Shown: positions 16,747 through 51,937 of the stretch, piece by piece | Numbering within the stretch: position 1 is the first letter of the stretch | How the letters are laid out: each line of letters starts with the position of its first letter | Assembly (NCBI GenBank): GCA_018830295.1 | Contig: JAHJSM010000001.1 | Coordinates: forward strand, 321,980 to 385,979 | Direction of reading: 5' to 3' | DNA: 64,000 bases | Source: Patescibacteria group bacterium | Lineage (GTDB): Bacteria > Patescibacteriota > Minisyncoccia > Portnoybacterales > UBA2143 | Translations under genes and position numbers: made by a program | The notes under the pieces: generated by a model | Database searches by the model: none | Told to the model about the DNA's origin: nothing | What the model saw: only the letters and a program-made list of their open reading frames with translations

Positions 16747-17565
16747 TAATCCAATCCAATCTTCAATCGTTAACCTTTCGGCCCTGATTTGAACATCTAA
16801 ACCAAGTTCAATCAGGGCTTTTTTTATTTCCTCTTTATTAATTTTTAGCTTTTCCGATAAATTATTCGCCAACTGCTTGCGCGGTCTGGAAAATCCCGCT
16901 TTAACTAAGCGGAAAAATTTTTTCATATCAATATCTTTTGGCTTGCGGATATCGCTAATTTTGACAACAGCCGAATCAACTTTTGGTTTGGGCCAAAACG
17001 ATTGTTTTGGAACATCATAAAGAAGTTCAGGACGGCTATATATTTGAACGGAGACCGAGAGCAGGGTCATTTTACCTTGTGAGGCGCATATTCTCCGCGC
17101 GACTTCTCTTTGCATTAAGAAAATAATTGTTCGCGGAGGATTTTCCGATTCCAGCAATTTTCTAATAAGAAAAGAAGTTAAATAATATGGAATATTAGCG
17201 ACAATTTTGTAGGGCGCGGAGATAATGGGGGCTGCCCCCGCGGCGGGGGCAGCCCCCATTATCTTCAAAATATCACCAACTATAATTTCTACATTATCCA
17301 AATCGCCCAAATTTTCTTTTAGTATCTCGGCGACTTTTTTATCTTTTTCCACGGCGATTACTTTTTTCGCTTTTTGGGCTATTTTCCTCGTCAAGGCGCC
17401 TAAGCCAGGTCCGACCTCCAGAACAATATCCTCCGAAGAAATTTCGGCCGCCTTAACCATCTGGTCAACCACTCCTTCGTCAACCAAAAAATTCTGCCCC
17501 AGGACTTTGTTGGGACGGATGTTGTATTGTTTGAGGAGTTTTTTAATATTATTTTTAGTTTTCAT
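16729..17565 (-). CDS. rsmA: 16S rRNA (adenine1518/1519-N6)-dimethyltransferase RsmA/KsgA, carrying in-frame repeat insertion
   Basis: LGQNFLVDEGVVDQMV…VLEVGPGLGALT SAM-binding motif; …NIPYYLTSFLIRKL; the segment MGAAPAAGAAPII is encoded by the family A palindrome. Confidence 0.85.
   Translation of the reverse strand: MKTKNNIKKLLKQYNIRPNKVLGQNFLVDEGVVDQMVKAAEISSEDIVLEVGPGLGALTRKIAQKAKKVIAVEKDKKVAEILKENLGDLDNVEIIVGDILKIMGAAPAAGAAPIISAPYKIVANIPYYLTSFLIRKLLESENPPRTIIFLMQREVARRICASQGKMTLLSVSVQIYSRPELLYDVPKQSFWPKPKVDSAVVKISDIRKPKDIDMKKFFRLVKAGFSRPRKQLANNLSEKLKINKEEIKKALIELGLDVQIRAERLTIEDWIGLLHINF
17221..17263. repeat. Family A palindromic element (GATAATGGGGGCTGCCCCC-GCGGC-GGGGGCAGCCCCCATTATC) inside ksgA
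   Basis: Two 19-nt perfectly inverted arms; G5-CWG-C5 cores also at 51259-51289, 28742-28769, 33522-33533, 59299-59313. Confidence 0.85.
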
Positions 17566-19483
17566 ATCTATATTCTACCAATTCTTCCGGAATGTTGGAA
17601 ATAAATCGCGAGGGCGGGTTCGCCATCGTTTGTCCATAGAGGCATCGGCGCGCGGCGAAGGTTAGATACGCCTTTTGTTTGGCTCGGGTAATTCCGACAT
17701 AGCAGAGCCGCCTTTCTTCTTCTATTTGTTCGGTCGCCAGCAAACTTCTTGAATGGGGAAAAATTCCTTCTTCGCAGCCGACAATAAAAACAACGGGAAA
17801 TTCCAATCCTTTAGCGCAATGGAGGGTCATTAAATTGATTATTCCCTTCTCTCGCGAGAGTTCATCCGCCCCAGTGAGCAAAATAATTTCTTCTAAAAAT
17901 TGTTCTAGTCCTTTTTCTTTTTCAAGCGAATCATATTTGCCAGCAATCGTAAGGAGTTCTTGAATATTTTCCCATCGTCTCTCCCCTTCTTCCGTTGTCG
18001 GCGAAATCTTTCTGACATAATTTTCGTATTCGGTCTTGTTAATAATTATTTTAATCAATTCTGTCAGCGGTTCTTTTTGGCTCGCGTCTTTGAGTTCGTT
18101 GATTAGTTGAGCGAAATTTTTAATTTTGGCGTTTTTGCTTTCAAAAACCATGCTCGCTCTATCGGAAATTTCCTTTTGGACGGTAATTTTGCCGATGCCT
18201 CGCGGCGGAGTATTGATAACTCTTTTCAATCCAGCCAAGTCATCTGGGTTGGAGATTATTTTCAAGTAAGCCAAAATGTCTTTAACCTCTTTTCTTTCGT
18301 AAAACCTGACAGAGCCAACAATTTTATAAGGTAAGCCCGCCTTAAGAAATGCCTCTTCAATCGCGCGTGATTGGGCGTTGGTTCTGTAAAGGACAGCAAA
18401 GTCGTTTAAATTAAGCCCTTCCGCGCTCATCAATCCCACTATTTCCTCAATTAAAAAATCGCCTTCTTCTGTTTCGTTATTTGTTTGAATGATATTAATG
18501 AGCGCGCCTTCTGGATTTCTGGTCCAAAGTTTTTTTTCTTTGCGTTGAGTGTTTTTGGCAATAATGTGATGGCTCGCTTCTAAAATATTTTTAGTTGAAC
18601 GATAATTTTCTTCAAGCAAGACCAATTTTGCTTCAGGATAATTCTTTTCAAAATTAAGAATATTTCTAAAATCAGCTCCGCGCCAACTATAAATACTTTG
18701 GTCAGTGTCGGCGATAAACCAAAGATTTTTGTGCTTTTCGGCAAGCATTTTTATGAGCGCGTATTGGCTAAAATTCGTGTCATGCGCCTCGTCAACCGAA
18801 AGATACTGCCATTTGTTTTGGTATTTTTCCAAAACCGATGGGTTTTCTCTCAAGAGTTTTTCGGTCAGCATAATTAAGTCGTCAAAATCAAGGGCGTTGG
18901 ATTTTTTGAGCGCCGCTTGATACGCTAAATATATTTTAGCGACGGTTTTTGGAAAATATTCTCGCGCTTGTTCCGCGTAAGAGTTGGCGTCTATTAATTC
19001 ATCTTTGGCGCGCGAAATCGCCGCTTGAACGGAGGCGGGTTTGAATTGGTCAGGGCTAATTTCCAAGTCCTTAATTGCTTTTTTAATTAAAGAAAGTTGA
19101 TCGGTCGTGTCATAAATAACAAAATTATTTTTGTATCCCTCTTTACCGTCAAGAGAAAGTTTGCCGATGTCTCGTCTCAAAATTCTTAAACAAATAGAAT
19201 GAAAAGTGCCGATAGTGGGTTCGGGGACAGTCCCCTTTCTTGGGGACTGTCCCCAGTCGTCAAGTAATTTCCTTACCCGATCCCTCATTTCTTCGGCGGC
19301 CTTGTTGGTAAAAGTAACGGCTAATATATTTTCTGGGTAAATTCCTTTTTGAATTAAATAAACAATGCGATGAGTCAGGCATCTTGTTTTACCCGAACCA
19401 GGACCCGCGATAACTAAAACCGGCCCCCTTGTCGCGGCGGCCGCCTCCCTCTGTTTTGGATTGAGAGATGATAAAATATCCAT
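17555..19483 (-). CDS. pcrA: ATP-dependent DNA helicase UvrD/PcrA family, carrying in-frame family B repeat
   Basis: VLVIAGPGSGKTRCLTHRI (Walker A, helicase motif I), TFHSICLRIL (motif Ia), DEAHD; start placed at internal Met (MDILSSLNPKQREA) to avoid overlap, ORF track allows 19555. Confidence 0.85.
   Translation of the reverse strand: MDILSSLNPKQREAAAATRGPVLVIAGPGSGKTRCLTHRIVYLIQKGIYPENILAVTFTNKAAEEMRDRVRKLLDDWGQSPRKGTVPEPTIGTFHSICLRILRRDIGKLSLDGKEGYKNNFVIYDTTDQLSLIKKAIKDLEISPDQFKPASVQAAISRAKDELIDANSYAEQAREYFPKTVAKIYLAYQAALKKSNALDFDDLIMLTEKLLRENPSVLEKYQNKWQYLSVDEAHDTNFSQYALIKMLAEKHKNLWFIADTDQSIYSWRGADFRNILNFEKNYPEAKLVLLEENYRSTKNILEASHHIIAKNTQRKEKKLWTRNPEGALINIIQTNNETEEGDFLIEEIVGLMSAEGLNLNDFAVLYRTNAQSRAIEEAFLKAGLPYKIVGSVRFYERKEVKDILAYLKIISNPDDLAGLKRVINTPPRGIGKITVQKEISDRASMVFESKNAKIKNFAQLINELKDASQKEPLTELIKIIINKTEYENYVRKISPTTEEGERRWENIQELLTIAGKYDSLEKEKGLEQFLEEIILLTGADELSREKGIINLMTLHCAKGLEFPVVFIVGCEEGIFPHSRSLLATEQIEEERRLCYVGITRAKQKAYLTFAARRCLYGQTMANPPSRFISNIPEELVEYRYEN
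19223..19254. repeat. Family B palindromic element inside uvrD/pcrA CDS (translated as …GQSPRKGTVPE…)
   Basis: GGGGACAGTCCCC-tttcttg-GGGGACTGTCCCC within helicase ORF, length keeps frame. Confidence 0.85.
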
Positions 19484-19490
19484 TGCTAAT

Positions 19491-27049: not shown

Positions 27050-27099
27050 TGCTTTAAATTATATCACAAATTTAAAAAACAATCTATCAACAGCAAAGA

Positions 27100-27332
27100 T
27101 AGGTCTCGATTTCGTAATTAAAGGTCAGACCTTTCAAAACTGAAAAGGTCTGACATCACGAGTAGCGACATTTCTTAAGGTCGCGCTCGAGAGGTCGGAC
27201 CTTTGGAACCCGACGAAAGACTTTCTTAACTGCGCAAAATCAAGGTCAGACCTTCTGAGCGAAACCTTAAGAAAGGTCTCTACTCCGAATGTCTGACCTT
27301 GTCGCAGGATAAAGGTCTGACCTTTAATTAAA
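27100..27332. repeat. Family C MITE-like composite element (terminal inverted repeats TTAAAGGTCAGACCTTT / AAAGGTCTGACCTTTAA with internal modules)
   Basis: Contains GGTC(A/T)GACC cores several times plus module GAGTAGCGACATTTCTTAAGGTCGCGCTCG shared with copies at 31861, 33707, 44858. Confidence 0.8.
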
Positions 27333-27370
27333 TTGACTTCTCTTGTGTATTTATCTACAATACCATCACA

Positions 27371-27446
27371 TCGGGGCGTGGCCTAGCGGCTTAGGGCGCG
27401 GCGCTTGGGTCGCCGAGATCGCAGGTTCAAATCCTGTCGCCCCGAC
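27371..27446 (+). tRNA. tRNA-Pro (anticodon TGG)
   Basis: Cloverleaf folded by eye: acceptor CGGGGCG/CGCCCCG, anticodon loop CTTGGGT, T-loop TTCAAAT. Confidence 0.8.
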
Positions 27447-27484
27447 TTGGTTTTAGCGGGCTTGCCCGCCGAAGCCTTGCGAAG

Positions 27485-27556
27485 GCGGGTATCGTATAGT
27501 GGCTATTACCACAGATTTCCAATCTGTTGACGCGGGTTCGATTCCCGCTACCCGCT
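27485..27556 (+). tRNA. tRNA-Gly (anticodon TCC)
   Basis: Acceptor GCGGGTA/TACCCGC, anticodon stem ACAGA/TCTGT with loop TTTCCAA, T-loop TTCGATT. Confidence 0.75.
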
Positions 27557-27609
27557 CATGATTTTTCTCAAAATTTGACAAAATTTTTTGATTTATCTAA
27601 TATATAAAT

Positions 27610-27861
27610 ATGCTTACAGGATATATTTCACAAAAACTAAATAAAGCGCAATATAAGATTTTAGAAGACGGGGTTTATTTTGGAGAAATTCCAGGACTAA
27701 AAGGCGTCTGGGCTTCAGAGAAAAACTTAGAAGAATGCCGCGAAACCCTCCGTGAGGTATTGGAAGAGTGGTTGATTTTGAAATTGCAAGACGGAGATAA
27801 AATTCCAGATTTTCCAAAAGCAAAAGCTGCTCATAGATCTCCTATTTTAAGACATGCCTAA
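27610..27861 (+). CDS. hicB: HicB-family antitoxin (type II TA)
   Basis: 83 aa; YFGEIPGLKGVWASEKNLEECRETLREVLEEWL matches HicB N-terminal domain consensus; overlaps hicA by 8 nt. Confidence 0.7.
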   Translation: MLTGYISQKLNKAQYKILEDGVYFGEIPGLKGVWASEKNLEECRETLREVLEEWLILKLQDGDKIPDFPKAKAAHRSPILRHA

Positions 27862-28066
27862 AAATATCTCCTGGAGAAAATTAGTTAAGAATTTCAGGAA
27901 ACTTGGTTTTGACGGTCCATACAGCGGCGGCAAACATCAGTTTATGGCAAAAGATTCTTTAAAAGTTCATATCCCATCTAAACATCAAGGCGATATCAGC
28001 GCGGGATTAGTCAGTGAAATTCTCCGTCAAGCAGGAATAAATAAAAAAGAATGGGATAAATTTTAA
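27854..28066 (+). CDS. hicA: HicA-family mRNA interferase toxin (type II TA)
   Basis: 70 aa; WRKLVKNFRKLGF…GGKHQFM…VHIPSKHQGDISAGLVSEILRQAGI fits YcfA/HicA dsRBD-like toxin pattern. Confidence 0.75.
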   Translation: MPKNISWRKLVKNFRKLGFDGPYSGGKHQFMAKDSLKVHIPSKHQGDISAGLVSEILRQAGINKKEWDKF

Positions 28067-28217
28067 TTTCATAACCAACAAGAGCAATAAAAAGGTGAGG
28101 AATTCCTTGCCTTTTTTAATTTGATTCAAGGACACCCCTTGCCAAAGAAAATACAACTGAAATTTATATTTTAAATGAACAAAGTTGGAAAGGGGTGTCC
28201 TTTTCTTGACACAACTA

Positions 28218-28246
28218 TTGACAAGTTATTGTTTTTGTGCTAATTT
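28218..28246 (+). promoter_or_regulatory. Sigma70-like promoter (TTGACA-17-TAATTT)
   Basis: Preceded by a 12-bp inverted repeat (AGGACACCCCTT…AAGGGGTGTCCT, 28124-28200) that could be an operator or terminator of the TA pair. Confidence 0.35.
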
Positions 28247-28318
28247 GGGGGTGGTTGTAATGGAGTTTATGGGAGCAAAGAATTGTTATTTAACATAAAA
28301 ACATAGAGGAGGGGGGAT

Positions 28319-28636
28319 ATGAAGCCAACGAGGATAACTATAGGCGGGACAATATTTATTGTCCTTATGCTGTCTTTGTTTATAGGAATTTGTTTTGATG
28401 TAGAAATAGCAAAGGCAAGATACGAACTACAGCAAATATCGCAAGAAAAATCTGAAAAACCTTATGATGATGATGGTCTGGGGATGATGATAATAAAGGA
28501 ATGGAACACCTGTCTTATAAAAGAGGGATATCTTCAATGGAAAAAAGACTATCCTGAACGGGCAAAAAAAATTATCAGCATCGCTGTTAGCGGGGGTGGA
28601 AGTAATTATTTTATGTTGATTTATGAAACGGAATAG
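28319..28636 (+). CDS. Hypothetical small membrane-anchored protein
   Basis: Strong RBS GAGGAGGGGGG; N-terminal TM; 105 aa. Confidence 0.4.
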   Translation: MKPTRITIGGTIFIVLMLSLFIGICFDVEIAKARYELQQISQEKSEKPYDDDGLGMMIIKEWNTCLIKEGYLQWKKDYPERAKKIISIAVSGGGSNYFMLIYETE

Positions 28637-28655
28637 GCGCGTAACGCAAAAACAA

Positions 28656-28709
28656 AAACCGATGGTTGTGGTGTTGAAGTAAAACACCAAAAACAACCAT
28701 CGGTTTTTT
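28656..28709. terminator. Bidirectional rho-independent terminator
   Basis: AAAACCGATGGTTGT…ACAACCATCGGTTTTTT 15-bp stem flanked by A-run/T-run on both sides; second hairpin AAAATCCCGATT-TAAT-CGGGATTTT at 28778-28808 terminates hup on minus strand. Confidence 0.6.
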
Positions 28710-28828
28710 AATTTGCGGAGGTTCAACCTCCGAATGAATCCGGGGGCAGCCCCCGCAAAGATGCCCCCGAAGACAAAATAAAATCCCGATTTAATCGGGA
28801 TTTTATTTATGCTTTTGAAAGCGGTTCT

Positions 28829-29098
28829 TTACTTCACTGCGTCTTTTAACGCTTTGCCTGCTTTGAATTTCGGAACTGTTGTCGCGGCGATTTGAAGTTT
28901 TTCGCCGGTTCTTGGGTTGACTCCCATGCGGGCGGCTCTTTTTGAAACGCTGAATTTTCCAAAACCGGTCAAAACCACATCATTGCCTTTTGATAACGCG
29001 CTCGTGATAGTGTCGAGCATCGCGTTAACCGCTTCTGACGCTTCTTTTTTTGAACAGCAGTTGCCAGCAACCGCTTCAATTAATTCATCTTTAGTCAT
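28829..29098 (-). CDS. hup: HU-family nucleoid-associated DNA-binding protein
   Basis: 89 aa; MTKDELIEAVA…GFGKFSVSKRAARMGVNPRTGEKLQIAATTVPKFKAGKALKDAV typical HU/IHF. Confidence 0.85.
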   Translation of the reverse strand: MTKDELIEAVAGNCCSKKEASEAVNAMLDTITSALSKGNDVVLTGFGKFSVSKRAARMGVNPRTGEKLQIAATTVPKFKAGKALKDAVK

Positions 29099-29212
29099 TT
29101 TATATTAGCGAATAGCGGATAGTGAACAGCGAACAAAATTATTCACCGTCCATTGTCCATTATTCGTTTTTAATTACTTTCTCGACCTTTGCTTATTCTA
29201 ACAACTAAACTG

Positions 29213-29998
29213 CTATAAATCAACAATTTTTTGAATTCTTTCAATTTTATTAGCTTTTCCGTTTTTTCCTGTTCCTATTAAAACAGCGTCCACTTCTACT
29301 GGCCCCTCAGCAACTTCCAATCTTATATTGCCTTGCGTTAAATATCTTTTAATCGCGTCTTCTTTTCTTCTTCCTAAACTTGAGTCCCTTACGCCAACCA
29401 TTCCAACATCGGAGATATAGGCGGTGCCGTTAGGCAGAACTCTTTCGTCGGCGGTCGGAACATGGGTATGCGTTCCCAAGACAGCCGTCACTCGCCCGTC
29501 TAAATACCATCCTAAACAAACCTTTTCGGCTGTCGCTTCAGCGTGCCAGTCAACAATAATAATGTCGGCTTCTTCAGACATCGCTTTTAGGATTTTATCC
29601 GCTTTCCTAAAAGGGTCGTCGTATTGCTGCCGCATAAAGACCCGCCCGATTAAATTAATGACTAAAACCTTTTTAGTCCTTATTTCAATCAAACGATAGC
29701 CCTTTCCAGGCAAACCGGGCGGGAAATTAGCGGGACGAATTAAAGGAATTTTTTTATCTTCCAAAAGACCTGCTATTTCCTTGTGTTTCCAAGTATGGTC
29801 GCCTGAAGTGACTAAGTCAATACCTGCCCCCAAGACCTCTTCTAAACTATTTCGAGTAATCCCCGCGCCGTGAGCCATATTTTCTCCATTGGCGATTATC
29901 AGGTCCGGTTCAAATTCATCGCGCCAAAGCGGAATAACTTTCTTAAGCGCTTCCCGCCCCGGCCGTCCAACAATATCTCCCAAGAATAAGATTTTCAT
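29213..29998 (-). CDS. ymdB: YmdB-like metallophosphoesterase (2',3'-cyclic-nucleotide phosphodiesterase, TIGR00282 family)
   Basis: MKILFLGDIVGRPGR…NGENMAHGAGIT…VDWHAEATAEK…GTHTHVPTADE; start chosen at canonical MKILF (ORF track allows 30025). Confidence 0.8.
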   Translation of the reverse strand: MKILFLGDIVGRPGREALKKVIPLWRDEFEPDLIIANGENMAHGAGITRNSLEEVLGAGIDLVTSGDHTWKHKEIAGLLEDKKIPLIRPANFPPGLPGKGYRLIEIRTKKVLVINLIGRVFMRQQYDDPFRKADKILKAMSEEADIIIVDWHAEATAEKVCLGWYLDGRVTAVLGTHTHVPTADERVLPNGTAYISDVGMVGVRDSSLGRRKEDAIKRYLTQGNIRLEVAEGPVEVDAVLIGTGKNGKANKIERIQKIVDL

Positions 29999-31860: not shown

Positions 31861-32062
31861 AAAAAGGTCCGACCTCTCAAGCGCGACCTTAAGAAATGTC
31901 GCTACTTGCGATGTCAGACCTTCTCGGTTCTAAAAGGTTTCTAAAAGGTCAGACCTTTCAAGACAACAACTCGTAACAGTTTATTTTCTCGTGACAAACT
32001 GATGGAAAGGTCTGACCTTTTATTTCTTTCTAAAGGTCGCGCTCATAGGTCGAACCTTTTCT
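31861..32062. repeat. Family C MITE-like composite element
   Basis: AAAAGGTCCGACC…AGCGCGACCTTAAGAAATGTCGCTACTTGCGATGTCAGACCTT…AAAAGGTCAGACCTTTC…GACAAACTGATGG…AAAGGTCTGACCTTTT. Confidence 0.8.
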
Positions 32063-32075
32063 TTTTCAATATTTT

Positions 32076-32106
32076 AGGGACAGTCCCTGTTGCGGGGACT
32101 GTCCCT
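32076..32106. repeat. Family B palindromic element
   Basis: AGGGACAGTCCC-tgttgcg-GGGACTGTCCCT. Confidence 0.85.
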
Positions 32107-32162
32107 AAAATATCCCCAAAATAAAAAGAACTGTCCTTTTACAGACAGTCCATTTTATTTAT

Positions 32163-33500: not shown

Positions 33501-33639
33501 AATAGTAAATATTTGATATTTGGGGGCAGCCCTCGATTAGTTAAAAAAATCCGTTTTGAAAAACGGATACTCTCCTCCCACTCCCATCCAAATCATCACT
33601 ATCTTATCACAACTCCAAATCCCTTGTCAAACGAAATTT

Positions 33640-33670
33640 GGGGACAGTCCCCGCAACAGGGACTGTCCCC
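33640..33670. repeat. Family B palindromic element
   Basis: GGGGACAGTCCCC-gcaaca-GGGACTGTCCCC. Confidence 0.85.
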
Positions 33671-33706
33671 AAATAACCCAAATGCCTTGACCTTTCGCCT
33701 GAAAGA

Positions 33707-33798
33707 AATTAAAGGTCAGACCTCTCAAGCGCGACCTTCGGAAATGTCGCTACTTGCGATGTCAGACCTTCTTGGTTCTTAAAGGTCTGACCTTTAAT
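33707..33798. repeat. Family C MITE-like element
   Basis: ATTAAAGGTCAGACC…AGCGCGACCTTCGGAAATGTCGCTACTTGCGATGTCAGACCTT…AAAGGTCTGACCTTTAAT. Confidence 0.8.
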
Positions 33799-33864: not shown

Positions 33865-33897
33865 GGGGACAGTCCCTCGCCGCGAGGGACTGTCCCC
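33865..33897. repeat. Family B palindromic element (identical to copy at 34222-34254)
   Basis: GGGGACAGTCCC-tcgccgcga-GGGACTGTCCCC. Confidence 0.9.
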
Positions 33898-34221: not shown

Positions 34222-34254
34222 GGGGACAGTCCCTCGCCGCGAGGGACTGTCCCC
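34222..34254. repeat. Family B palindromic element (identical to 33865-33897)
   Basis: GGGGACAGTCCC-tcgccgcga-GGGACTGTCCCC. Confidence 0.9.
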
Positions 34255-34264: not shown

Positions 34265-35158
34265 TCATTCCTTAACATTCCTCAAATACTTATAAACCCC
34301 GGTGGCGGCGACTGCCCCTTCGGCGCAGGCGGTGATAATTTGTTTGAGAGGGTTGTTGGTAATATCCCCTGCCGCGAAAACGCCTGGGACATTGGTTGCT
34401 TGTTCTTTATTGACGGCAATAAAATTATTATCCATTTCTATTTTCAATTCGCCGCATAAATGGACATTTGGCACGCCGCCAACTTCAATAAAAAGTTCGT
34501 TAAGTTTCACTTCGTTCCCGTTATTGAGAATAATTTTCTCAAGCGATTTTTTGCCCTTCGCTTCGGCGACTTGGGCGCAATAAAGAATTTCAATATTCTC
34601 CTTCTTTTCCGCTTTTTTAACCAAACTTGGCGCTCCCCGAAATTCGTCTCGGCGGAGAATTATGTACGCTTTTTTAGCGTAATCAGAGACCTTTAACACA
34701 AGAGTTAACGCGCTGTCTCCTCCTCCAACCACGGCGACAGTTTTGTTTTTTAGCGTGGAAATATCAGGCGCGCAATACGAAATTCCTTTATTTAAAAATT
34801 TATCTTCGTTTTTTATCCCCAACTTTCGCATTTTCATTCCCAATCCCAAAATTAACGATTTGGCTTGATACCTTCCTTTATCGGTTACCACTTCAAAAAT
34901 GGGGGACTTAACCCCACTTTTTGTCAACTTTACAACTTGTTCGTTTTTGGTTTTGGCATTGAAATGTTCGTAAAATTTCTTTGCCAAATCAGGTCCCGAA
35001 ATGGACTTAAATCCCAAATAGTTATCAACAATATGGGCTTCATTGACAGTTCCGCCCTTTATTTGCCCGATAACTAAAAAATTAATCCCATACCTTCGGG
35101 CGTATATCCCAGCTGACAAACCAGCCGGTCCTCCGCCAATGATAATCAAATCATACAT
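34265..35158 (-). CDS. Thioredoxin-reductase-like FAD/NAD(P) oxidoreductase lacking the CxxC redox motif
   Basis: [20 protein letters not shown] (FAD GxGxxG), VAVVGGGDSAL (NADPH site), GVFAAGD; position of canonical CATCDG reads YCAPDIS. Confidence 0.7.
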   Translation of the reverse strand: MYDLIIIGGGPAGLSAGIYARRYGINFLVIGQIKGGTVNEAHIVDNYLGFKSISGPDLAKKFYEHFNAKTKNEQVVKLTKSGVKSPIFEVVTDKGRYQAKSLILGLGMKMRKLGIKNEDKFLNKGISYCAPDISTLKNKTVAVVGGGDSALTLVLKVSDYAKKAYIILRRDEFRGAPSLVKKAEKKENIEILYCAQVAEAKGKKSLEKIILNNGNEVKLNELFIEVGGVPNVHLCGELKIEMDNNFIAVNKEQATNVPGVFAAGDITNNPLKQIITACAEGAVAATGVYKYLRNVKE

Positions 35159-36382: not shown

Positions 36383-36410
36383 TTTTGACTATTGAAAGGC
36401 AAAAGAGAAA

Positions 36411-36493
36411 TTAAAGGTCAGACCTTCCCATCAGTTTGTCACTAAACAATAAGCAGTCGCGATAATGTCGTTTTGAAAGGTCTGACCTTTAAT
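36411..36493. repeat. Family C MITE-like element
   Basis: TTAAAGGTCAGACCTTCC-CATCAGTTTGTCAC-…AAGCAGTCGCGATAATGTCGTTTTG-AAAGGTCTGACCTTTAATT. Confidence 0.85.
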
Positions 36494-36595
36494 TCTCTTG
36501 CTATGTTTCTTTTTTATATCCAAATCTGAATTGCAGCCCCGCAATTCTGCGGGGCACTAATTTTTGAAACCAAATCAGAATTTGGACAAAAATTG

Positions 36596-36674: not shown

Positions 36675-36708
36675 GGGGACTGTCCCTATAATTATAGGGA
36701 CAGTCCCC
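36675..36708. repeat. Family B palindromic element (opposite arm order; loop TATAATTATA)
   Basis: GGGGACTGTCCC-tataattata-GGGACAGTCCCC. Confidence 0.85.
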
Positions 36709-36719: not shown

Positions 36720-37709
36720 TTATTTTACCACTTTATCAAACAACTGATATAACAACTTGATTCTTGTTTCTTTTTCTTTTCTTGGTCTTTCGGCGGCGCA
36801 GATGTCGGCTAAAATTGCTCCCATTATTCTTTCCGCTAAGCAGGCTTTCATTAAAGAATCAAAATTTTTGATTTTAAGTTTTTGGGCTGTTTTGCTAATC
36901 AGCGCGAGCCATTCATTGACCCCTTTTTCCCAACTGGCAAAATTCATTTTCCAGTTCGCCTCCATGAGCCAGTCCGACCAAATAATAAAAGACAACTCGT
37001 AGCCCTCGGGATACATTTTGTTATGCCCGAAATCAATTAGATAATATCCGCTTTCGCCTTTGAAAATCTTGGTCGGGTTAAAGAGCCCGTGGCAGTAAAT
37101 CATCTTTCTGTTTTTGAATTCTTTTTCAATCAGGTCCAATACTTTAAGATATCGCGGAATAAACTCTTTTGGCTTGATAATGGGCTTTTTGCCTGCCATA
37201 GAGAGTTCGGCTTCTTTGTTATGCGCTAATTGAAACCATCGGGCTATTCTGAAAATATGAAACTTATTCGCGGGTAGATTTTCAGCGAGTTCCAGTTTTC
37301 GTTCTGGCTTGGTTGGGAAATTCTTGCGATATTCCAAATACGCGTTAAGAAATTCTTCTCTTTGCCCGGGGTTAAGCGGTCTTTTGAATGACTCTCGCAA
37401 AGGCAATTTCTCCATTATCAACCATCCTCTGTTTGGCGATTCCATTTGGTAATCGTATACTTCCGCCGCTTTCAGAATATTGCTTTTATTCTGCTTGTTA
37501 AATCTGATTTGCGCGAGTGGCTCATCCGTGATTCTCGGGTCGTCGTAAATTTTCAAAATCGCTGGTTTGTCTTTGTATTCTCCCTCAAAAATCAAATCGC
37601 GGATATTATTTTTGGAATAATAAATTCCCCTTTTGATTTCTTTTTTAGGAATAAAACCCGTTTTTTTGAAAATCTCTTCCGCCCAAATATCTAATTTTGT
37701 TTGTTTCAT
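36720..37709 (-). CDS. Protein-kinase-fold phosphotransferase (APH/choline-kinase-like) family protein
   Basis: Catalytic-loop-like CHGLFNPTKIF and Mg-binding YLIDFGHN arrangement as in aminoglycoside/choline kinase family. Confidence 0.45.
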   Translation of the reverse strand: MKQTKLDIWAEEIFKKTGFIPKKEIKRGIYYSKNNIRDLIFEGEYKDKPAILKIYDDPRITDEPLAQIRFNKQNKSNILKAAEVYDYQMESPNRGWLIMEKLPLRESFKRPLNPGQREEFLNAYLEYRKNFPTKPERKLELAENLPANKFHIFRIARWFQLAHNKEAELSMAGKKPIIKPKEFIPRYLKVLDLIEKEFKNRKMIYCHGLFNPTKIFKGESGYYLIDFGHNKMYPEGYELSFIIWSDWLMEANWKMNFASWEKGVNEWLALISKTAQKLKIKNFDSLMKACLAERIMGAILADICAAERPRKEKETRIKLLYQLFDKVVK

Positions 37710-39179: not shown

Positions 39180-39269
39180 GGTCTCATCATAACGCGATTA
39201 GATTTTTTCCGCAATCTATCCCTAGACAATTTGACCGAGGGGCGGTTTTGGTTTAGAGTGGTGGTAGAT

Positions 39270-39342
39270 GCGCCCGTAGCTCAACGGATAGAGTATCGCG
39301 CTTCGGACGCGAGGGTTGGGGGTTCGAGTCCCTCCGGGCGCA
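39270..39342 (+). tRNA. tRNA-Arg (anticodon TCG)
   Basis: Acceptor GCGCCCG/CGGGCGC, anticodon stem TCGCG/CGCGA, loop CTTCGGA. Confidence 0.7.
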
Positions 39343-39353
39343 CATAAACATTC

Positions 39354-39425
39354 GCGCTCATAGCTCAATGGTAGAGCAGTTGCCTCTTAAGCAATTGGTT
39401 CCAGGTTCAAATCCTGGTGGGCGCA
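39354..39425 (+). tRNA. tRNA-Lys (anticodon CTT)
   Basis: Acceptor GCGCTCA/TGGGCGC, anticodon loop CTCTTAA, T-arm CCAGG TTCAAAT CCTGG. Confidence 0.75.
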
Positions 39426-39472
39426 CAAGTTTTAATTTGCTTTTTTTTGTTTTGTCTGATAGAATAGGGGAT

Positions 39473-44923: not shown

Positions 44924-46171
44924 ATGGAAGATTATATTTGGATATTTATTTTAATAGGATTTTTTATACTTTGGGGTTTAATTTCATGGATTCGTGAGAC
45001 GATTTCCAATTCAAAAAAATATTTAGAATTAAAACCAAAGTTAGACAACTTGGAAAATTCAATAAAAGAACACGAATCAAAAATTGATAAAGATAGAGAG
45101 GAATGGAGATTAAAAGTAAAAACATGGAATGAAAAAATAAAGAACGATAAAAAAGAGATTCAAAAAATAGCCAGACAGAAATCAATGGGATTTCCTTGGC
45201 TCGCAGAAGCATATGCTGATTATTTTGCGTTAAAAGATGGCGAATTAGAAGAATATTTAAAGTATAAAAAACATCCAGCATATACTGCCGCAGAAAATGT
45301 AAAAATTATCAAAAACGCAAAAAGAGAATTAGTTAGAGAAAATAAAATAATAAGTTATAAGATTAATTATTTTGAAAAACTATTTCCTTGGTTGTCGGAA
45401 TTAATAGCAGAAAATGAAGATGAAGAAATTCCCGTTCGAATTGATGATAATCTGGAAAATAAAGACGACGATAAAGATAGGGTTAAAGATTTTCTTACAC
45501 AGGAAGAATATAGAAAGTTGCCCTCCGTTGAGAGAAATCAAATGGCATTAGATAGATATTTAAAAAATAGATATAAATCAAAATGGGCAATTGGGAGAGA
45601 TTACGAAATGTATGTTGGGTATTTATATGAACAAAAAGGGTATTCCGTTGAATATACGGGGATTATTGATGGTTTTGCAGATCTTGGCAGAGATGTCATT
45701 GCTACAAAAGACGATGAGGTATGTATTATTCAGTGCAAGCGATGGGCGTGTTGGAAAGAAATGCGTGAAAAACATATTTTTCAATTATTCGGAACAACAA
45801 TGGAATATTGGATTAAAAATTTTAAAAACCATAGAAAACCAAAAAATTTCGAAGAATTTGCCAAATTTTTAAACGAAAATAAACTCAGACCAATATTTTT
45901 TACTTCAACAAATTTATCTAATAAAGCAAAAGAAATGGCGAATGCATTAAGTGTTGAAATAATAGAAAACGAGCCACTTGGTGAATTCCCAAGAATTAAG
46001 TGTAATATAAATAATGATGAATTTGGCTCACAAACAAAGATATATCATTTACCCATAGATCAACAATATGATAGAACAATAATCGGTAATCGAGCCGGAG
46101 AATTTTACGCTTTTACTGTCAAAGAAGCGGAGGAAGCTGGTTTTAGAAGAGCATTTAAACATAGTTATTAG
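44924..46171 (+). CDS. TM + coiled-coil protein with Mrr-like PD-(D/E)xK restriction-endonuclease domain
   Basis: N-terminal TM (IWIFILIGFFILWGLISWI), long K/E coiled region, then YEMYVGYLYEQKGYSVEYTGIIDGFADLGRDVIATKDDEVCIIQCKRWA… matching Mrr_cat core (D…D/E-x-QCK). Confidence 0.5.
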   Translation: MEDYIWIFILIGFFILWGLISWIRETISNSKKYLELKPKLDNLENSIKEHESKIDKDREEWRLKVKTWNEKIKNDKKEIQKIARQKSMGFPWLAEAYADYFALKDGELEEYLKYKKHPAYTAAENVKIIKNAKRELVRENKIISYKINYFEKLFPWLSELIAENEDEEIPVRIDDNLENKDDDKDRVKDFLTQEEYRKLPSVERNQMALDRYLKNRYKSKWAIGRDYEMYVGYLYEQKGYSVEYTGIIDGFADLGRDVIATKDDEVCIIQCKRWACWKEMREKHIFQLFGTTMEYWIKNFKNHRKPKNFEEFAKFLNENKLRPIFFTSTNLSNKAKEMANALSVEIIENEPLGEFPRIKCNINNDEFGSQTKIYHLPIDQQYDRTIIGNRAGEFYAFTVKEAEEAGFRRAFKHSY

Positions 46172-46219: not shown

Positions 46220-46249
46220 GGGGACTGTCCCCTCTTGGGGACAGTCCCC
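46220..46249. repeat. Family B palindromic element
   Basis: GGGGACTGTCCCC-tcttg-GGGACAGTCCCC. Confidence 0.85.
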
Positions 46250-46419
46250 CTTTGGGATAGGGGAAAAAGGCGTCAGGAATCTTTTTGGAACAGATAAAAA
46301 ATCATTCGGCTATCGGAAAGCCGAATAAGGGAATAAAATAGAAGATAAAGATTTGGCATTGTTGATTTTTCGCTTTTTTGTGATAAAATGGAAGGAGTGA
46401 AGTTATTAAAAATAAAGAT

Positions 46420-46956: not shown

Positions 46957-46978
46957 AAATAAACGTAAGATTATAAAT

Positions 46979-47344: not shown

Positions 47345-47350
47345 TTTTAG

Positions 47351-48388: not shown

Positions 48389-48410
48389 TAAGAAGTATCC
48401 ACAATTAAAA

Positions 48411-48494
48411 TTAAAGGTCAGACCTTTCCATCAGTTTGTTGCTAGATAATAAGCAGTCGTGATGATGTCGTTTTGAAAGGTCTGACCTTTAATT
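48411..48494. repeat. Family C MITE-like element
   Basis: Near-identical to 36411-36493 copy (CATCAGTTTGT, AAGCAGTCGTGATGATGTCGTTTTG modules). Confidence 0.85.
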
Positions 48495-48500
48495 TCTTAA

Positions 48501-48761: not shown

Positions 48762-48819
48762 AGTACGGAAAGTATAAATCAAACTTTCAAATTAAGCAAG
48801 GGTATGGTAGTATTTTTGT

Positions 48820-49386
48820 ATGCTTGCTTTTCTTGAAGGGAAAATTGAATTAAAAACGGAGAAGTTTGCCATTATTAATGTTGGCGGCGTTGGGTATAAG
48901 GTTTTTGGCGTGGCATCGGTCTTGGATAAATTATCTAAAGGCAAAGAGGCAAAACTTTTTGTTCATCTTTACACGCGCGAAAATATTTTGGATTTATACG
49001 GTTTTTTGTCTTTTGAGAGCCTGGAATTTTTTGAAACCCTTATTTCCGTCAGGGGCATTGGTCCCAAGGCGGCGCTTTCAATTATGGCCATTGCGTCAGT
49101 TGCGACTCTTAAACAAGCGATTGCTAGTGGGCAAAAAGCGCTCTTAACTAAGGTTTCTGGAATTGGTCAAAGAACGGCGGAGCGTGTTATTCTAGAATTA
49201 AAAGATAAAATCGTCGCGCCTATCGCCGATATTAAAAGATTGAGTTCGGATAGCGACGCGATAGATGCTTTAGTCAGTTTGGGTTATACTATCCAACAAG
49301 CGAGGGGAGCGCTTGAACAAGTGTCCGCAAAAACCAAAGGCGCGGCAAGCAGAGTCAGAGAAGCGCTAAAACTTTTAGGAAAATAA
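48820..49386 (+). CDS. ruvA: Holliday junction branch-migration protein RuvA
   Basis: MLAFLEGKIELKTEKFAIINVGGVGYKV…, HhH motifs (GIGPKAALSIMA; GIGQRTAERVILELK). Confidence 0.85.
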   Translation: MLAFLEGKIELKTEKFAIINVGGVGYKVFGVASVLDKLSKGKEAKLFVHLYTRENILDLYGFLSFESLEFFETLISVRGIGPKAALSIMAIASVATLKQAIASGQKALLTKVSGIGQRTAERVILELKDKIVAPIADIKRLSSDSDAIDALVSLGYTIQQARGALEQVSAKTKGAASRVREALKLLGK

Positions 49387-49387
49387 T

Positions 49388-50314
49388 ATGAAAGAAGAAT
49401 GGAATCGTTTTATTATTAAGAATGGTGGGGGCTTTTTGCAGTCGTATCAGTGGGGAGAATTTCAGAAAGCGTTCGGTAGGAAGATTTGGCGCGTTGAGAT
49501 AGGAAACGATTTGAAAGCGTTGGTTATTAAACACAGATTGCCTTTGCGGCGTAATTATTTATATTGTCCGCGCGGACCCGTAATTCAGCGAACAATAAAT
49601 TTGTTTTTAGAAAAAGTTAGGGAAATAGGGAAAAGAGAAGGAAGTATTTTTTTGAAAACTGAACCGTTTTTTAATTCTAAAATTTTAGGAAATGACTTTA
49701 TTAAGTCGGAAAAAGAAATTCAGCCGTCGCGAACAATAATTTTAGATATTTCAAAATCAGAGGAGGATTTGCTAGAGCAAATGAGCCAGAAAACAAGGTA
49801 TAATATTAGATTATCCCAACGCAAAGGAGTGATTATTAAAGAGGCGGCGAGTGATAAGGCATTAGCGATAAATTCTTTTTTAAAATTATTAAAAAAAACG
49901 ACAGAGAAGGATGGTTTTCGCGCTCATCCGGAAAAATATTATCAAAAAATGTTTGATTTTTTAGGCAAAGAGGGTTCCGTAAAATTATTCTTAGCGAAAC
50001 ATAGAAAAAAGGTTGTCGCCGCCGCGCTTTTTTCTTTTTTTGGGGAAACGGCTGTTTACTTGCACGGCGCTTCGGATTATGACGCGCGCCAATTAATGGC
50101 GCCGCATCTAATCCAATGGCAGGCTATTTTGGAAGCAAAAAAAAATGGATTAAAATACTACGATTTTGGCGGAATTGATGAAAAAAAATGGCCCGGAGTG
50201 ACCCGATTTAAAAAGGGGTTTGGAGGACAAGAAACTGTCTACCCCGGCGCGTTTGACTTGATTTTTAAGCCGTGGTGGTATAGTGTTTATAATATAGCAA
50301 GGAAGGTCTTGTAG
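49388..50314 (+). CDS. FemAB-family peptidoglycan peptide-bridge aminoacyltransferase-like protein
   Basis: FemAB-like N-terminus FLQSYQWGEF…, GNAT-like C-terminal half; adjacent to Mur ligase. Confidence 0.55.
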   Translation: MKEEWNRFIIKNGGGFLQSYQWGEFQKAFGRKIWRVEIGNDLKALVIKHRLPLRRNYLYCPRGPVIQRTINLFLEKVREIGKREGSIFLKTEPFFNSKILGNDFIKSEKEIQPSRTIILDISKSEEDLLEQMSQKTRYNIRLSQRKGVIIKEAASDKALAINSFLKLLKKTTEKDGFRAHPEKYYQKMFDFLGKEGSVKLFLAKHRKKVVAAALFSFFGETAVYLHGASDYDARQLMAPHLIQWQAILEAKKNGLKYYDFGGIDEKKWPGVTRFKKGFGGQETVYPGAFDLIFKPWWYSVYNIARKVL

Positions 50315-50354
50315 TTTTTTAACAATTTTTTAAAAATAGAAAAAAGGGGGTAAT

Positions 50355-50543
50355 ATGTCAGATGAAATAAAAGAATGTCCAGATCCAAGATGTAGAAGAG
50401 GATATATTTTTTGCGAAGGGATGCATGTCGTTTGCATGACTTGCAAGGGAGTAGGCGAAGGAACGGAGGAATTTTTTAAAAAGAACAAAGAAGAAGCGGA
50501 AAAGTTGAGACGCGAAATTTTTGCTGACGCCTGCGCTTCGTAG
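50355..50543 (+). CDS. Small Cys-rich hypothetical protein (62 aa)
   Basis: RBS AAAAGGGGG; CPDPRC…CMTCKG zinc-ribbon-like. Confidence 0.3.
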   Translation: MSDEIKECPDPRCRRGYIFCEGMHVVCMTCKGVGEGTEEFFKKNKEEAEKLRREIFADACAS

Positions 50544-50632
50544 TTCGTAGGCGGAAGGATTTTAAAGAGCCAAAGCAAAATGCTTTTGGCTCTTTTATTT
50601 TCCGCCGAAAACTGGTATTGTGTTAATAATTT

Positions 50633-50662
50633 GGGGACTGTCCCCAAGAGGGGACAGTCCCC
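50633..50662. repeat. Family B palindromic element
   Basis: GGGGACTGTCCCC-aagag-GGGACAGTCCCC. Confidence 0.85.
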
Positions 50663-50677
50663 AAATAACAAATTATT

Positions 50678-51937
50678 ATGAAAAATACAATTAAAAAAAT
50701 TACTCCCAACTCTCTTTTAAGCGCCTATCATTTCCTGCTTTCTTTTTTGGGCGCGGTTTTTTATGGCTTTCCCTCGCGAAAACTAAAAATAATCGGGGTG
50801 ACAGGGACGAATGGCAAGTCAACGACAGTGTTTTTAATCAATCAGATTTTAGAAAAGGCGGGATATAAGACGGCTTCTTTGTCGTCTATCTATTTTACAA
50901 CCAACGGCGATATTGAGCTAAACAATCTAAAAATGACCATGCCTGGTCGTTTTAAAATCCATAAGTTTTTGAGGCGGGCGGTTGAGGCGGGATGTCAATA
51001 CGCCGTTTTGGAAATAACTTCAGAGGGGATTAAACAGCATCGCCATCGTTTTATTGGTTTTGATACGGCTGTTTTCACTAATCTTACGCCTGAACATATA
51101 GAAAGCCACGGCGGATTTGAGAATTATAAAAAAGCGAAAGGAAAACTTTTTCAATCGCTTAAGCCAAATGGTAAATCAATTGTTAATTTAGACGACCCAA
51201 ACAGCCATTATTTCTTGCGATTCGCGGCGAAAGAAAAATGGGGATACACATTACAACAGGGGGCTGCCCCCGTGGCGGGGGCAGCCCCCGTCGTAAAAGG
51301 AGAGAAAATCGAGATAAAAAAATCTTATTCTTCATTCTTCATTAATAATTCATTATTCATAATTCATCTTTTAGGCAAATTTAATATTTCTAACGCCTTG
51401 GCGGCGATTGCGGTTGGAACGGCGGAAGGAATTTCTTTAGAGAAAATGAAGTTGGCTTTAGGGGAAATAAAAGGCATTCCCGGTCGTTTAGAAATAGTTA
51501 CTAAGGAACTATTTACAGTAATTGTTGATTACGCTCATACGCCAGACGCTTTAGAAAAGGTCTATCAAACCGCGCGAAAAATGTCTGATGGAAAATTAAT
51601 AGGCGTTCTTGGTTCGGCGGGCGGAGGCAGAGACAAATGGAAAAGACCTGAAATGGGAAAAATCGCGGAAAAATATTTGGATATGATTATTATTACTAAC
51701 GAAGACCCTTACGACGAAGACCCGAGCCAGATTATTAGCGAAATCGTTGAAGGGATAAAAAATAAAGAGGTTAAAAAAATTATTGACCGCAGAGAAGCAA
51801 TTCGCTACGCTCTAAAAATAGCGGAAAAAGACGATGTGGTTATTATTACGGGCAAAGGATGCGAATTATGGATGTGCGTTGAAGGAAATAAAAAAATCCC
51901 TTGGGATGACAGGAAAGTAGTTAAGGAGGAGATTTAA
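50678..51937 (+). CDS. Mur ligase family protein (MurE-like UDP-MurNAc-tripeptide synthetase), carrying in-frame family A repeat
   Basis: IIGVTGTNGKSTTVFL P-loop, DYAHTPDAL, ligase C-terminal domain; QQGAAPVAGAAPVV encoded by the palindrome. Confidence 0.7.
   Translation: MKNTIKKITPNSLLSAYHFLLSFLGAVFYGFPSRKLKIIGVTGTNGKSTTVFLINQILEKAGYKTASLSSIYFTTNGDIELNNLKMTMPGRFKIHKFLRRAVEAGCQYAVLEITSEGIKQHRHRFIGFDTAVFTNLTPEHIESHGGFENYKKAKGKLFQSLKPNGKSIVNLDDPNSHYFLRFAAKEKWGYTLQQGAAPVAGAAPVVKGEKIEIKKSYSSFFINNSLFIIHLLGKFNISNALAAIAVGTAEGISLEKMKLALGEIKGIPGRLEIVTKELFTVIVDYAHTPDALEKVYQTARKMSDGKLIGVLGSAGGGRDKWKRPEMGKIAEKYLDMIIITNEDPYDEDPSQIISEIVEGIKNKEVKKIIDRREAIRYALKIAEKDDVVIITGKGCELWMCVEGNKKIPWDDRKVVKEEI
51259..51289. 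repeat. Family A palindromic element inside Mur ligase CDS
   Basis: GGGGGCTGCCCCC-gtggc-GGGGGCAGCCCCC. Confidence 0.85.

Follow-up and report, generated by a model that had tools for sequence, protein, structure and literature searches.

A 64,000-nt stretch of the chromosome of a Patescibacteria group bacterium (contig JAHJSM010000001.1, positions 321,980 to 385,979; the whole stretch is referred to below as the window) contains two conserved, essential enzyme genes, ksgA (rsmA), encoding the 16S rRNA A1518/A1519 dimethyltransferase, and murE, encoding UDP-MurNAc-tripeptide synthetase, each of which carries in frame a copy of the same very short, GC-rich palindromic repeat. The interpretation that we favor, at a probability of roughly 0.7, is that both features are copies of a selfish, hairpin-forming dispersed repeat, similar in kind to REPINs and to the Rickettsia palindromic elements (RPEs), whose distribution has been filtered by selection. 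The observations that carry this interpretation are the identity of the repeat in the two genes, the energetics of its hairpin, the lack of stop codons in the unit, the in-frame location of both copies in predicted coils, a bias in reading frame, a depletion of the repeat within genes and purifying selection on ksgA, along with an allelic difference at the murE copy and the presence or absence of further repeats (families B and C, described below) between closely related strains.

Results

The repeat in ksgA and murE

An initial annotation of the window had proposed that a palindromic element, designated family A, is repeated in frame in two conserved enzyme genes. The sequences are indeed found there by direct reading, GATAATGGGGGCTGCCCCCGCGGCGGGGGCAGCCCCCATTATC at 17221-17263 and GGGGGCTGCCCCCGTGGCGGGGGCAGCCCCC at 51259-51289, and the genes are ksgA (16729-17565, minus strand; TIGR00755, 3e-73, and PF00398 over residues 19-272) and murE (50678-51937, plus strand; TIGR01085, 2e-118, with PF08245 and PF02875). 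In the family A unit, a 13-nt palindrome is separated from its inverted copy by a GYNRC spacer, making a core of 31 nt, or 45 nt with the flanks at ksgA. There, the core (17227-17257) reads GGGGGCTGCCCCC-GCGGC-GGGGGCAGCCCCC and is bounded by 7-nt inverted flanks (AGATAAT/ATTATCT), so that the full palindrome, slightly longer than originally delimited, covers 45 nt (17220-17264) with 22-nt arms of 100% complementarity; the murE core (51259-51289, spacer GTGGC) has perfect 14-nt arms. With at most one mismatch, the 13-mer GGGGGCWGCCCCC matches the window seven times (starts at 17227, 17245, 28742, 33522, 51259, 51277 and 59301, the one at 33522 with a mismatch) compared to 0.05 matches expected from dinucleotide-preserving shuffles, none of 100 shuffles reaching seven. 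The element is ~87% G+C, vs. 32-46% for the window.

The near-identical Gly/Ala/Pro peptides attributed to the two copies are likewise encoded as described. On the gene (minus) strand, the ksgA palindrome encodes K-I-M-GAAPAAGAAP-I-I-S (peptide KIMGAAPAAGAAPIIS), the open reading frame (ORF) reading ...GDILKIMGAAPAAGAAPIISAPYKIVANIPYY... around the element, with IMGAAPAAGAAPIISAPYK as the predicted tryptic peptide that carries it. The murE copy encodes on the plus strand GAAPVAGAAP, residues 195-204 (peptide QQGAAPVAGAAPVV), in the context ...WGYTLQQGAAPVAGAAPVVKGEK.... No stop codon interrupts the canonical unit in any of its six frames, and a frame read as GAAP on one strand is matched by a GAAP frame on the opposite strand (GAAP..GAAP).

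Fold and family architecture

The element had been described as a double hairpin, a description that has to be revised. The minimum-energy fold of each doublet as single-stranded DNA is a single long hairpin, 14-21 bp in the stem and 3 nt in the loop (14 bp and 3 nt for the unit itself), at -27.9 kcal/mol for the ksgA doublet and -20.4 kcal/mol for the murE doublet (z = -5.6 to -9.3, with z = -9.3 for ksgA); two short hairpins are disfavored because the lone 13-mer folds at just -3.8 kcal/mol.

Nor does family A hold up as a separate entity. It is covered by a larger family pattern, G4-R-C-W-G-Y-C4 followed by GYNRC and the inverted copy, and shares architecture and spacer with the more abundant GGGGACWGTCCCC repeats (family B), which contribute 10 more doublets to the window, including in-frame copies in uvrD and in a Wzy-like gene, for a density of 12 A/B doublets per 64 kb. 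Both families have a common layout, often with an identical spacer (GTTGC/GCAAC), and differ by a compensatory G>A / C>T pair. Among the matches listed for 79 low-GC loci and the window, GGGG[R]CWG[Y]CCCC has G/C as its variable pair in 227 cases, A/T in 43 and a mismatch in 6, and homotypic doublets outnumber the others 118 to 10, while sequence variation is concentrated in the 3-nt loop (CAA/TTG, CGG/CCG, TGG). Thus, the palindrome is kept up by paired changes. A search of Rfam at the gathering threshold matched only tRNAs, leaving the repeats without any Rfam family.

Location of the element in the host proteins

The Pfam and TIGR domains of both enzymes are conserved on either side of the element, and both ORFs are open. 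The window KsgA (MBU2579681.1, on a 744,622-nt contig), with best protein matches in Patescibacteria/Parcubacteria, shares the segment MGAAPAAGAAP with all nine KsgA proteins of ≥95% identity, which come from separate NCBI, ENA and JGI assemblies with 1-6% nucleotide divergence around the insert; one of them has an internal G>E change. The dN/dS values of 0.08 (vs. strain contig L081) and 0.11 (vs. L010) point to purifying selection on ksgA and, by extension, to a functional host gene, and the only difference within the palindrome in this comparison, at a dS of 0.21, is a central loop base.

Whether the ksgA insert is a surface loop had been put as a question. In the AlphaFold2 (AF2) models of both proteins, each with a mean predicted local distance difference test score (pLDDT) of 88.5, the element is predicted to be coil of lowered pLDDT. 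In MurE, element residues 195-204 fall within a coil at 192-204 (mean pLDDT of the 10-residue block, 67). In KsgA, insert residues 104-116 fall in a coil at 105-119 (pLDDT <50 at 107-112) between a helix (99-104) and a strand (120-124) that ends in N124-I-P-Y. The insert had been placed just before the substrate-binding NIPY loop, which is true of the sequence; in space it is probably distal, since Rossmann-fold topology together with the AF2 strand assignment would put it at the N-terminal end of beta4, on the side facing away from the S-adenosylmethionine/adenine pocket of the active site.

The original description of a plain insertion is only partly sustained, in that the segments derive from the repeat and, at the same time, stand in place of loop residues, the element-free murE allele (below) having altered flanks as well. 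The KsgA loop from GD[IV]L to [IV]VANIPY has 20 aa here, compared to a modal 11 aa in homologs from the candidate phyla radiation (CPR; range 9-55 aa), and Bacillus subtilis KsgA (6ifs) has an unrelated segment of about equal length (18 vs. 19 residues, D[V/I]LK to [I/V]VAN[L/I]PY). The MurE segment that follows K-W-G-Y is 40 aa long in the window, against a modal length of 38 aa among 120 homologs. It measures 27 aa in the strain without the element (P0122), 45 aa in another strain protein (P0123) and 11 aa in homologs that lack the small subdomain; relative to Thermotoga MurE (4bub) it shows no net length gain. Segments of the same length in unrelated homologs had been named in advance as evidence against an insertion. 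They do occur, and the repeat origin still stands because the DNA itself is the repeat, with an identical 13+5+13 nt core recurring at unrelated loci. Because element-bearing loops are about as long as those of homologs, the element appears, from these sequence comparisons, to occupy or replace part of a hypervariable loop, with native residues lost around it. As a separate observation, the small antiparallel sheet of the MurE central domain is wholly missing in other Parcubacteria MurE proteins (P0152, P0165 and P0175).

Two further genes of the window host family B doublets in frame. The one in uvrD/pcrA (19223-19255, GGGGACAGTCCCC-TTTCTT-GGGGACTGTCCCC) encodes WGQSPRKGTVPEP and coincides exactly with an 8-residue gap in the alignment to PcrA 1pjr, and the one at 53041-53081 (spacer GTTGC, inverted flanks TATTT/AAATA) encodes GDCPRCGDSPQ in a Wzy_C (O-antigen-ligase-like) ORF.

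Across CPR lineages, KsgA loops resembling translated palindromes recur (DILGTVPSTLGTVPNYK, DLLGAAPSILGAAPK, DIIRDSPSDTVLDSRTVSEGLSLK, EILRGRSLKCIHFKERPLSYK and others). In all four ksgA genes that were fetched, the loop DNA folds strongly and the extra loop residues are encoded by these palindromes: a family A-like hairpin in L101 (-20.0 kcal/mol), a family B hairpin in L102 (-20.8 kcal/mol), a 63-nt perfect hairpin in L103 (-35.5 kcal/mol) and a ~115-nt hairpin in L104 (-32.2 kcal/mol). At least five different palindromes thus occupy one KsgA loop across CPR lineages, which amounts to recurrent colonization. The uvrD-ksgA gene pair is kept across these contigs; in L102, from another CPR lineage, the neighboring uvrD (27-2996, 989 aa) contains Hint/intein-splicing domains, i.e., an intein.

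Variation between closely related strains

Over 46.3-56.5 kb, the window shares 98-99.9% identity with the strain contigs L001 and L002 (Logan) and L024 (JGI), which differ from it almost only at repeats. L024 carries the murE element; L001/L002 lack it and have, in place of window positions 51238-51301 (65 nt), 26 unrelated nt (KEKWGYTLQQGAAPVAGAAPVVKGEK against KEKITYTVKSLEK), so that the element-free allele also differs in ~25 nt of flanking sequence. A third murE allele (P0123/L074) carries its own element copy, MGAAPATGAAPI, with the spacer GCAAC; it is identical to the window gene except at the N-terminus and in a strongly divergent block of ~50 aa, the small antiparallel sheet within the central domain.

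The family B doublet located 12 nt upstream of the murE start codon (50629-50666) is absent from L001, L002 and L024. The window has 46 extra nt at this site (50632-50677) with no clean direct repeat, and the insert ends in AATTATT, which is reverse-complementary to the 7 nt that flank it on the left. Two elements of a separate, longer class (family C) are polymorphic among the same strains: the one at 48409-48496, with TTAA at both junctions of the filled site, is missing from L001, L002 and L024, and a second at ~53890-53960 is missing from L024.

Turnover at a single site is observed in dprA, whose linker carries two elements in tandem (L056 4784-5653; L050 592-1467). The first of them is a canonical A-A doublet (GGCPRCGGSP) in one of two close strains and an A-B hybrid (GAAPEDEGLSP) in the other, with different flanks; in both murE and dprA, 10-15 nt on each side change along with the element. 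An all-against-all flank BLAST of 153 doublets for further filled/empty pairs found only the murE and 50632 sites informative, and L088, which aligns to window 36.3-36.7 kb, is rearranged too far for an insertion site to be read.

Genic copies, reading frames and target sites

A metagenome scan for the doublet yielded at least 96 loci, and among the matches listed (to which the frame and position counts below also refer) the canonical unit GGGGGCTGCCCCC-G[CT]NRC-GGGGGCAGCCCCC occupies 50 unique low-GC sites. The repeat is depleted within genes: only 4 of the 12 A/B doublets in the window are genic despite 84% of the window being coding (P about 1e-4). Overall, 30 of 89 unique doublets lie inside ORFs of ≥150 aa. 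Hosts of other in-frame copies on CPR contigs include LepA, PheT, RecG, CysS, RNase J, GT4 glycosyltransferases, another Mur ligase and DprA. Within ORFs of ≥200 aa, the GAAP frame is used ten times and the GLPP/GQPP and GGCP/GGSP frames once each (P about 5e-4); with one duplicated site merged, the GAAP frame accounts for 9 of 11 (P about 1e-3). The initial annotation had suggested palindromy as the reason for tolerance of the element within genes. The same peptide is indeed encoded on both strands, and tolerance is better explained by three other factors, namely that none of the six frames contains a stop codon, that the copies lie in disordered loops or linkers and that one of the three frames is selected for.

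Intergenic copies cluster downstream of genes. A stop codon is found at most 15 nt upstream of 21 of the 59 unique intergenic doublets and at most 60 nt upstream of 35, compared to 8 and 13, respectively, that are as close to a start codon. T-rich tails follow 33% of stop-proximal and 7% of genic copies, and several copies in the window were flagged as terminator-like. As an identity for the repeat, a canonical (Rho-independent) terminator fits in position (36% within 15 nt and 59% within 60 nt of a stop codon), with T-tails mostly missing, and this reading was not adopted; the hairpins may still have a terminator-like role or origin.

The flanks of canonical copies show a preference for A/T at -2 and T/C at -1 and only weak palindromy (an extension of ≥4 nt in 3 of 46), which makes the 7-nt inverted flanks at ksgA unusual; copies with other spacer lengths lie in longer palindromes (an extension of ≥4 nt in 42% vs. 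2.5% under the null). A 33-nt rule, by which the 31-nt core plus an AT duplication would guarantee the frame, was dropped, as AT on both sides is no commoner than expected.

Other repeats and genes in the window

The single or decayed family A copies that had been reported as intergenic all lie outside long ORFs. One (28742-28768) is a decayed doublet, consisting of GGGGGCAGCCCCC and a degraded second arm, GCAAAGATGCCCCC; another (33522-33534, GGGGGCAGCCCTC, one mismatch) precedes the nusA start codon (minus strand) by 22 nt; the third (59301-59313) is 8 nt past a small ORF and 48 nt before tRNA-Arg, the position of 59299 reported for it being the start of a G7 run. The remaining intergenic family B doublets are found at 15921-15953 (11 nt past the stop codon of ORF 15386-15910), 32069-32113 (spacer GTTGC, downstream of the nusA stop codon), 33636-33674 (spacer GCAAC), 36675-36708 (between tRNA-Ala and the stop codon of ORF 36720-37709) and 46220-46249 (49 nt past the stop codon of ORF 44924-46171), together with two identical copies of a 33-nt family B-type doublet, GGGGACAGTCCCTCGCCGCGAGGGACTGTCCCC, at 33865-33897 and 34222-34254, the latter 11 nt past the stop codon of ORF 34265-35158 (minus strand).

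Family C, separate from family A, is MITE-like (miniature inverted-repeat transposable element). Its copy at 48409-48496 is ~84 nt long with termini AATTAAAGGTCAGACCTTTC/GAAAGGTCTGACCTTTAATT, and six pairs of AAAGGTCWGACCTTT termini ~60 nt apart are present in the window, the ~80-90 nt class being located at 27122-27323, 31942-32022, 33713-33793, 36409-36494, 48408-48495 and 53897-53974. A stretch of ~2.1 kb (27050-29213) has no ORF of ≥110 aa and contains tRNA-Pro, tRNA-Gly, several family C copies, the decayed family A copy and further perfect hairpins at 28645-28717 and 28776-28808; at the Rfam threshold it matches no family except tRNA.

Being free of stop codons, the repeats give rise to spurious ORFs or make them longer, as with a 146-aa antisense ORF (17225-17665, plus strand) that starts at the ATG of the ksgA palindrome, a 113-aa ORF (50330-50671, minus strand) that runs across a family B copy, and the P0123 murE gene call, extended upstream through a family B copy (NNLGTVPKRGQSPNNN). 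A small acidic ORF of 146 aa (L056 7084-7524) with at least three in-frame family A copies (…EEGAAPVAGAAPEEEVDENQGAAPVAGAAPEE…) may encode a protein composed mostly of repeats, or else be spurious.

Around 39200-39400, the cumulative GC skew has its minimum and the skew changes sign from negative to positive, and gene orientation switches at ~39.2 kb from almost all minus-strand to plus-strand. The region looks like a replication origin, with no dnaA adjacent; nearby genes encode a CCA-adding/poly(A) polymerase-type enzyme, two tRNAs, rpsO, an NYN-domain protein and pnp, and strain contig L045 has ~2.4 kb in place of 39226-39434. A VirB4/TraG-like P-loop ATPase (5779-7605), lying amid ORFs without Pfam match (3301-5511 and 7602-10868), and a TraX-family protein adjoining ksgA (16087-16746) may belong to a type IV secretion or competence-like system.

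Discussion

The favored interpretation can be stated as a scenario of dispersal and filtering. Most copies would settle between genes, often just past stop codons. A genic copy could persist, because the unit has no stop codon in six frames, provided that its net length change keeps the frame and that it falls within a disordered surface loop or interdomain linker, where it would preferably be read as Gly-Ala-Ala-Pro-x-x-Gly-Ala-Ala-Pro. The copies in ksgA and murE would be two such survivors, in which the host protein stays functional, the added peptide is a passenger, and neighboring native residues are lost or remodeled with loop length remaining roughly constant.

Several results weigh against a selfish repeat of this kind. 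The exact doublet with a 5-nt spacer was found in only 2 of 185,579 GTDB species representatives (Portnoybacteria MHMZ01000024 and Patescibacteria JAHIHE010000152), intergenic in both, in a scan that did not retrieve the genome of the window and in which copies may be hidden by the tendency of contigs to break at repeats. No target-site duplication was found for family A (flank direct-repeat score of 0.61 vs. 0.60 under the null), nor any clear target motif or one tied to spacer orientation. No HUH/Y1 (IS200/RAYT) candidate emerged from a motif regex over 1,574 ORFs of the window and the fetched loci, a crude and weak search, and a Pfam scan of ~26 ORFs revealed no transposase or other mobilizing gene in the 64 kb covered of a 745-kb genome. 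The murE difference is a replacement of 65 nt vs. 26 nt, which may reflect a loss of the element instead of a gain; the allele lacking it looks derived (KITYT vs. KWGYT), because KWGY is the widespread state among homologs. At ksgA, no empty allele was found among members of the 90%-identity cluster, all of which carry the insert, so that insertion there is deduced only via proteins of at most 72% identity. Finally, the intergenic copies right after stop codons hint at a host function.

An alternative that we consider unlikely, if far from negligible, does without a dedicated mobile element: the GC-rich palindrome would spread and turn over only through recombination among strains and among copies (ectopic gene conversion, template switching at hairpins), the ksgA and murE segments being hypervariable cassettes. 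This would account naturally for the mosaic structure of the murE alleles, with P0123/L074 matching the window outside a ~50-aa block that has its own element copy, for the joint change of element and flanks in murE and dprA with no target-site duplication, for flanking bases being present as inverted copies at both ksgA and 50632, and for element-bearing loops being no longer than element-free ones. It is harder to reconcile with identical 31-nt cores set in unrelated flanks at dozens of unrelated loci, which require a step that copies the core alone, and with the clean presence/absence at 50632 in the absence of other divergence.

Somewhat less probable in our estimate is that the hairpins are host-functional signals (terminators, stabilizers of mRNA 3'-ends or protein-binding sites) multiplied for that function, with genic copies as by-products, an explanation partly compatible with a selfish repeat in the form of mobile terminator-like hairpins (cf. 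SPRITE or Correia elements). The clustering past stop codons, the terminator-like appearance of several window copies, the enrichment of T-rich tails in stop-proximal over genic copies and the maintenance of pairing by compensatory change all speak for it. However, two thirds of the stop-proximal copies have no T-rich tail, about one third of the unique doublets are genic, no Rfam family matches, and copies come and go among 99% identical strains with gene order unchanged; moreover, a permissive landing zone at the 3' ends of genes would give the same positional bias.

Assembly or sequencing artefacts, i.e., chimeric joins at the repeat, are a very improbable source of the inserts. Public contigs and partial proteins do often end exactly at repeats (two partial KsgA proteins, P0245 and P0249, end or start there; the ends of L105 and L106 lie at window 31956, 32078 and 33664), and other contigs with an identical NusA protein are 100% identical fragments ending at repeats, which suggests that short-read assemblies are fragmented by the repeats, whose numbers in metagenome-assembled genomes (MAGs) are probably underestimated. 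Nevertheless, a chimeric origin, which the initial annotation had raised as a possible objection, is contradicted by the same in-frame ksgA insert in nine proteins from separate assemblies at NCBI, ENA and JGI, by the presence of the murE insert in NCBI, JGI, Logan and ENA records as well as in L024, and by open ORFs with domains conserved on both sides. We give practically no credence to the Gly/Ala/Pro segments being ordinary lineage-specific loops with a coincidental DNA similarity between ksgA and murE: loops of similar length do occur in unrelated homologs, but the 13+5+13 nt match differs only in the loop, the 13-mer exceeds expectation by the margin given above, and the core recurs at intergenic sites and in dozens of other genes.

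If the features are copies of a selfish repeat, the element would be mobile in its own right, and several routes of copying can be considered. A trans-acting, hairpin-specific enzyme working on single-stranded DNA (RAYT, the REP-associated tyrosine transposase, or IS200/IS605-like) falls just short of an even chance; an enzyme-free route, by template switching or ectopic conversion at hairpins, is possible and somewhat less probable; some other process seems improbable. A scan of viral contigs for the doublet gave no hits and so no sign of a phage vector. Enzymes of the HUH type, such as RAYT or IS200/IS605-like ones, leave no target duplication. The flank remodeling, the inverted bases at 50632 and the lack of duplication are more readily explained by a patch-replacing or hairpin-templated process than by cut-and-paste with duplication, and an HUH-type enzyme, also duplication-free, stays compatible with these features.

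A broader generalization, which we offer tentatively and judge somewhat more apt to prove wrong than right, is that CPR bacteria carry an undescribed class of ~31-nt stop-free, GC-rich hairpin repeats that routinely colonize and turn over in surface loops of essential proteins, hitting the same loops independently in many lineages (e.g., the KsgA motif III-IV loop) in a patch-replacing manner, with no target duplication and no classical transposase, and that these repeats are a major source of lineage-specific insertions in the proteins of these bacteria, as well as of contig breaks in their MAGs. In the full-text literature on CPR, Patescibacteria and Parcubacteria, coverage of which was incomplete, we found no description of such repeats, and a prior description is possible. 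To our knowledge, in-frame selfish DNA in protein genes is rare and essentially tied to Rickettsia RPEs and a few organelle cases. If our interpretation is correct, it would be a general outcome in small AT-rich genomes, here with a unit of 31 nt that is free of stop codons and has a measurable frame bias, offering a compact system for how proteins absorb random peptide insertions and helping to explain lineage-specific loop insertions in CPR proteins. On the practical side, the repeats break short-read contigs and extend or create false ORFs, and the combination of remodeled flanks with no target duplications bears on the route of mobilization.

A comparison with known systems places the element among, rather than within, the established classes. 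Classical MITEs such as Correia, ERIC and RUP (PMC10969869) are similarly non-autonomous, with inverted termini and the capacity for in-frame fusions, and family C, at 84 nt, fits this description, its TTAA junctions being what a MITE with a TTAA target duplication would show. In contrast, families A and B are below the usual size (~50-500 bp) and have no target-site duplication and no parent IS in sight.

The GC clusters and hairpin elements of mitochondria (yeast GC42, PMC4478555; sponge repetitive hairpin elements, PMC2800124) share with our repeat a size of ~30-80 nt, a GC-rich hairpin structure in a compact AT-rich genome, polymorphism between close strains, conservation of stems over loops, occasional copies in coding or rRNA genes and the lack of a known transposase; the latter source also cites a double-hairpin element in Allomyces (Paquin et al., 2000). 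For these elements, cut-and-paste alone has been found insufficient (PMC4478555; PMC2800124). Unlike our repeat, they are organellar, their genic copies are rare and mostly confined to variable regions of rRNA, and yeast GC42 has an AG target duplication, whereas the present host is a free bacterial chromosome, with tRNAs, murE, nusA and pnp, in which protein-coding hosts are common.

REPINs (PMC3116915; PMC3337134) resemble the doublets in architecture, two inverted palindromic units with a short spacer forming one hairpin, as well as in the many copies per genome, in single units that look like decayed doublets, in the absence of target-site duplication and in compensatory stem evolution. 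They differ in being extragenic and accompanied by a RAYT gene that the repeats usually flank, whereas about one third of the present copies are genic (4 of 12 in the window, 30 of 89 unique doublets); the GTAG-type 5' motif of repetitive extragenic palindromic (REP) sequences is absent here, and no RAYT was found in the weak search of 1,574 ORFs.

RPEs are sequence families of ~100-150 bp in Rickettsia that are inserted in frame in many housekeeping genes (Ogata et al., 2000, Science 290:347, as summarized in PMC10969869). As far as that summary describes them, the likeness is substantial: palindromic, hairpin-forming repeats occur both between genes and in frame in unrelated housekeeping genes of a small, AT-rich, reduced genome, with host proteins intact and the added peptide placed where their fold can accommodate it (the hosts here being ksgA, murE, uvrD and the Wzy-like ORF, together with the genes for LepA, PheT, RecG, CysS, RNase J, GT4 and DprA). 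On the same basis, the differences lie in size and composition, RPEs being ~100-150 bp and AT-rich, unlike the present element of 31 nt (45 with flanks) and ~87% G+C, found in Patescibacteria and contributing 10-11 residues with a dominant GAAP frame; there is no sequence relationship, and neither length nor family membership agrees. Overall, this analogy suggests that RPEs are the functionally closest known system to the repeat in ksgA and murE, which would parallel them without belonging to the RPE family.

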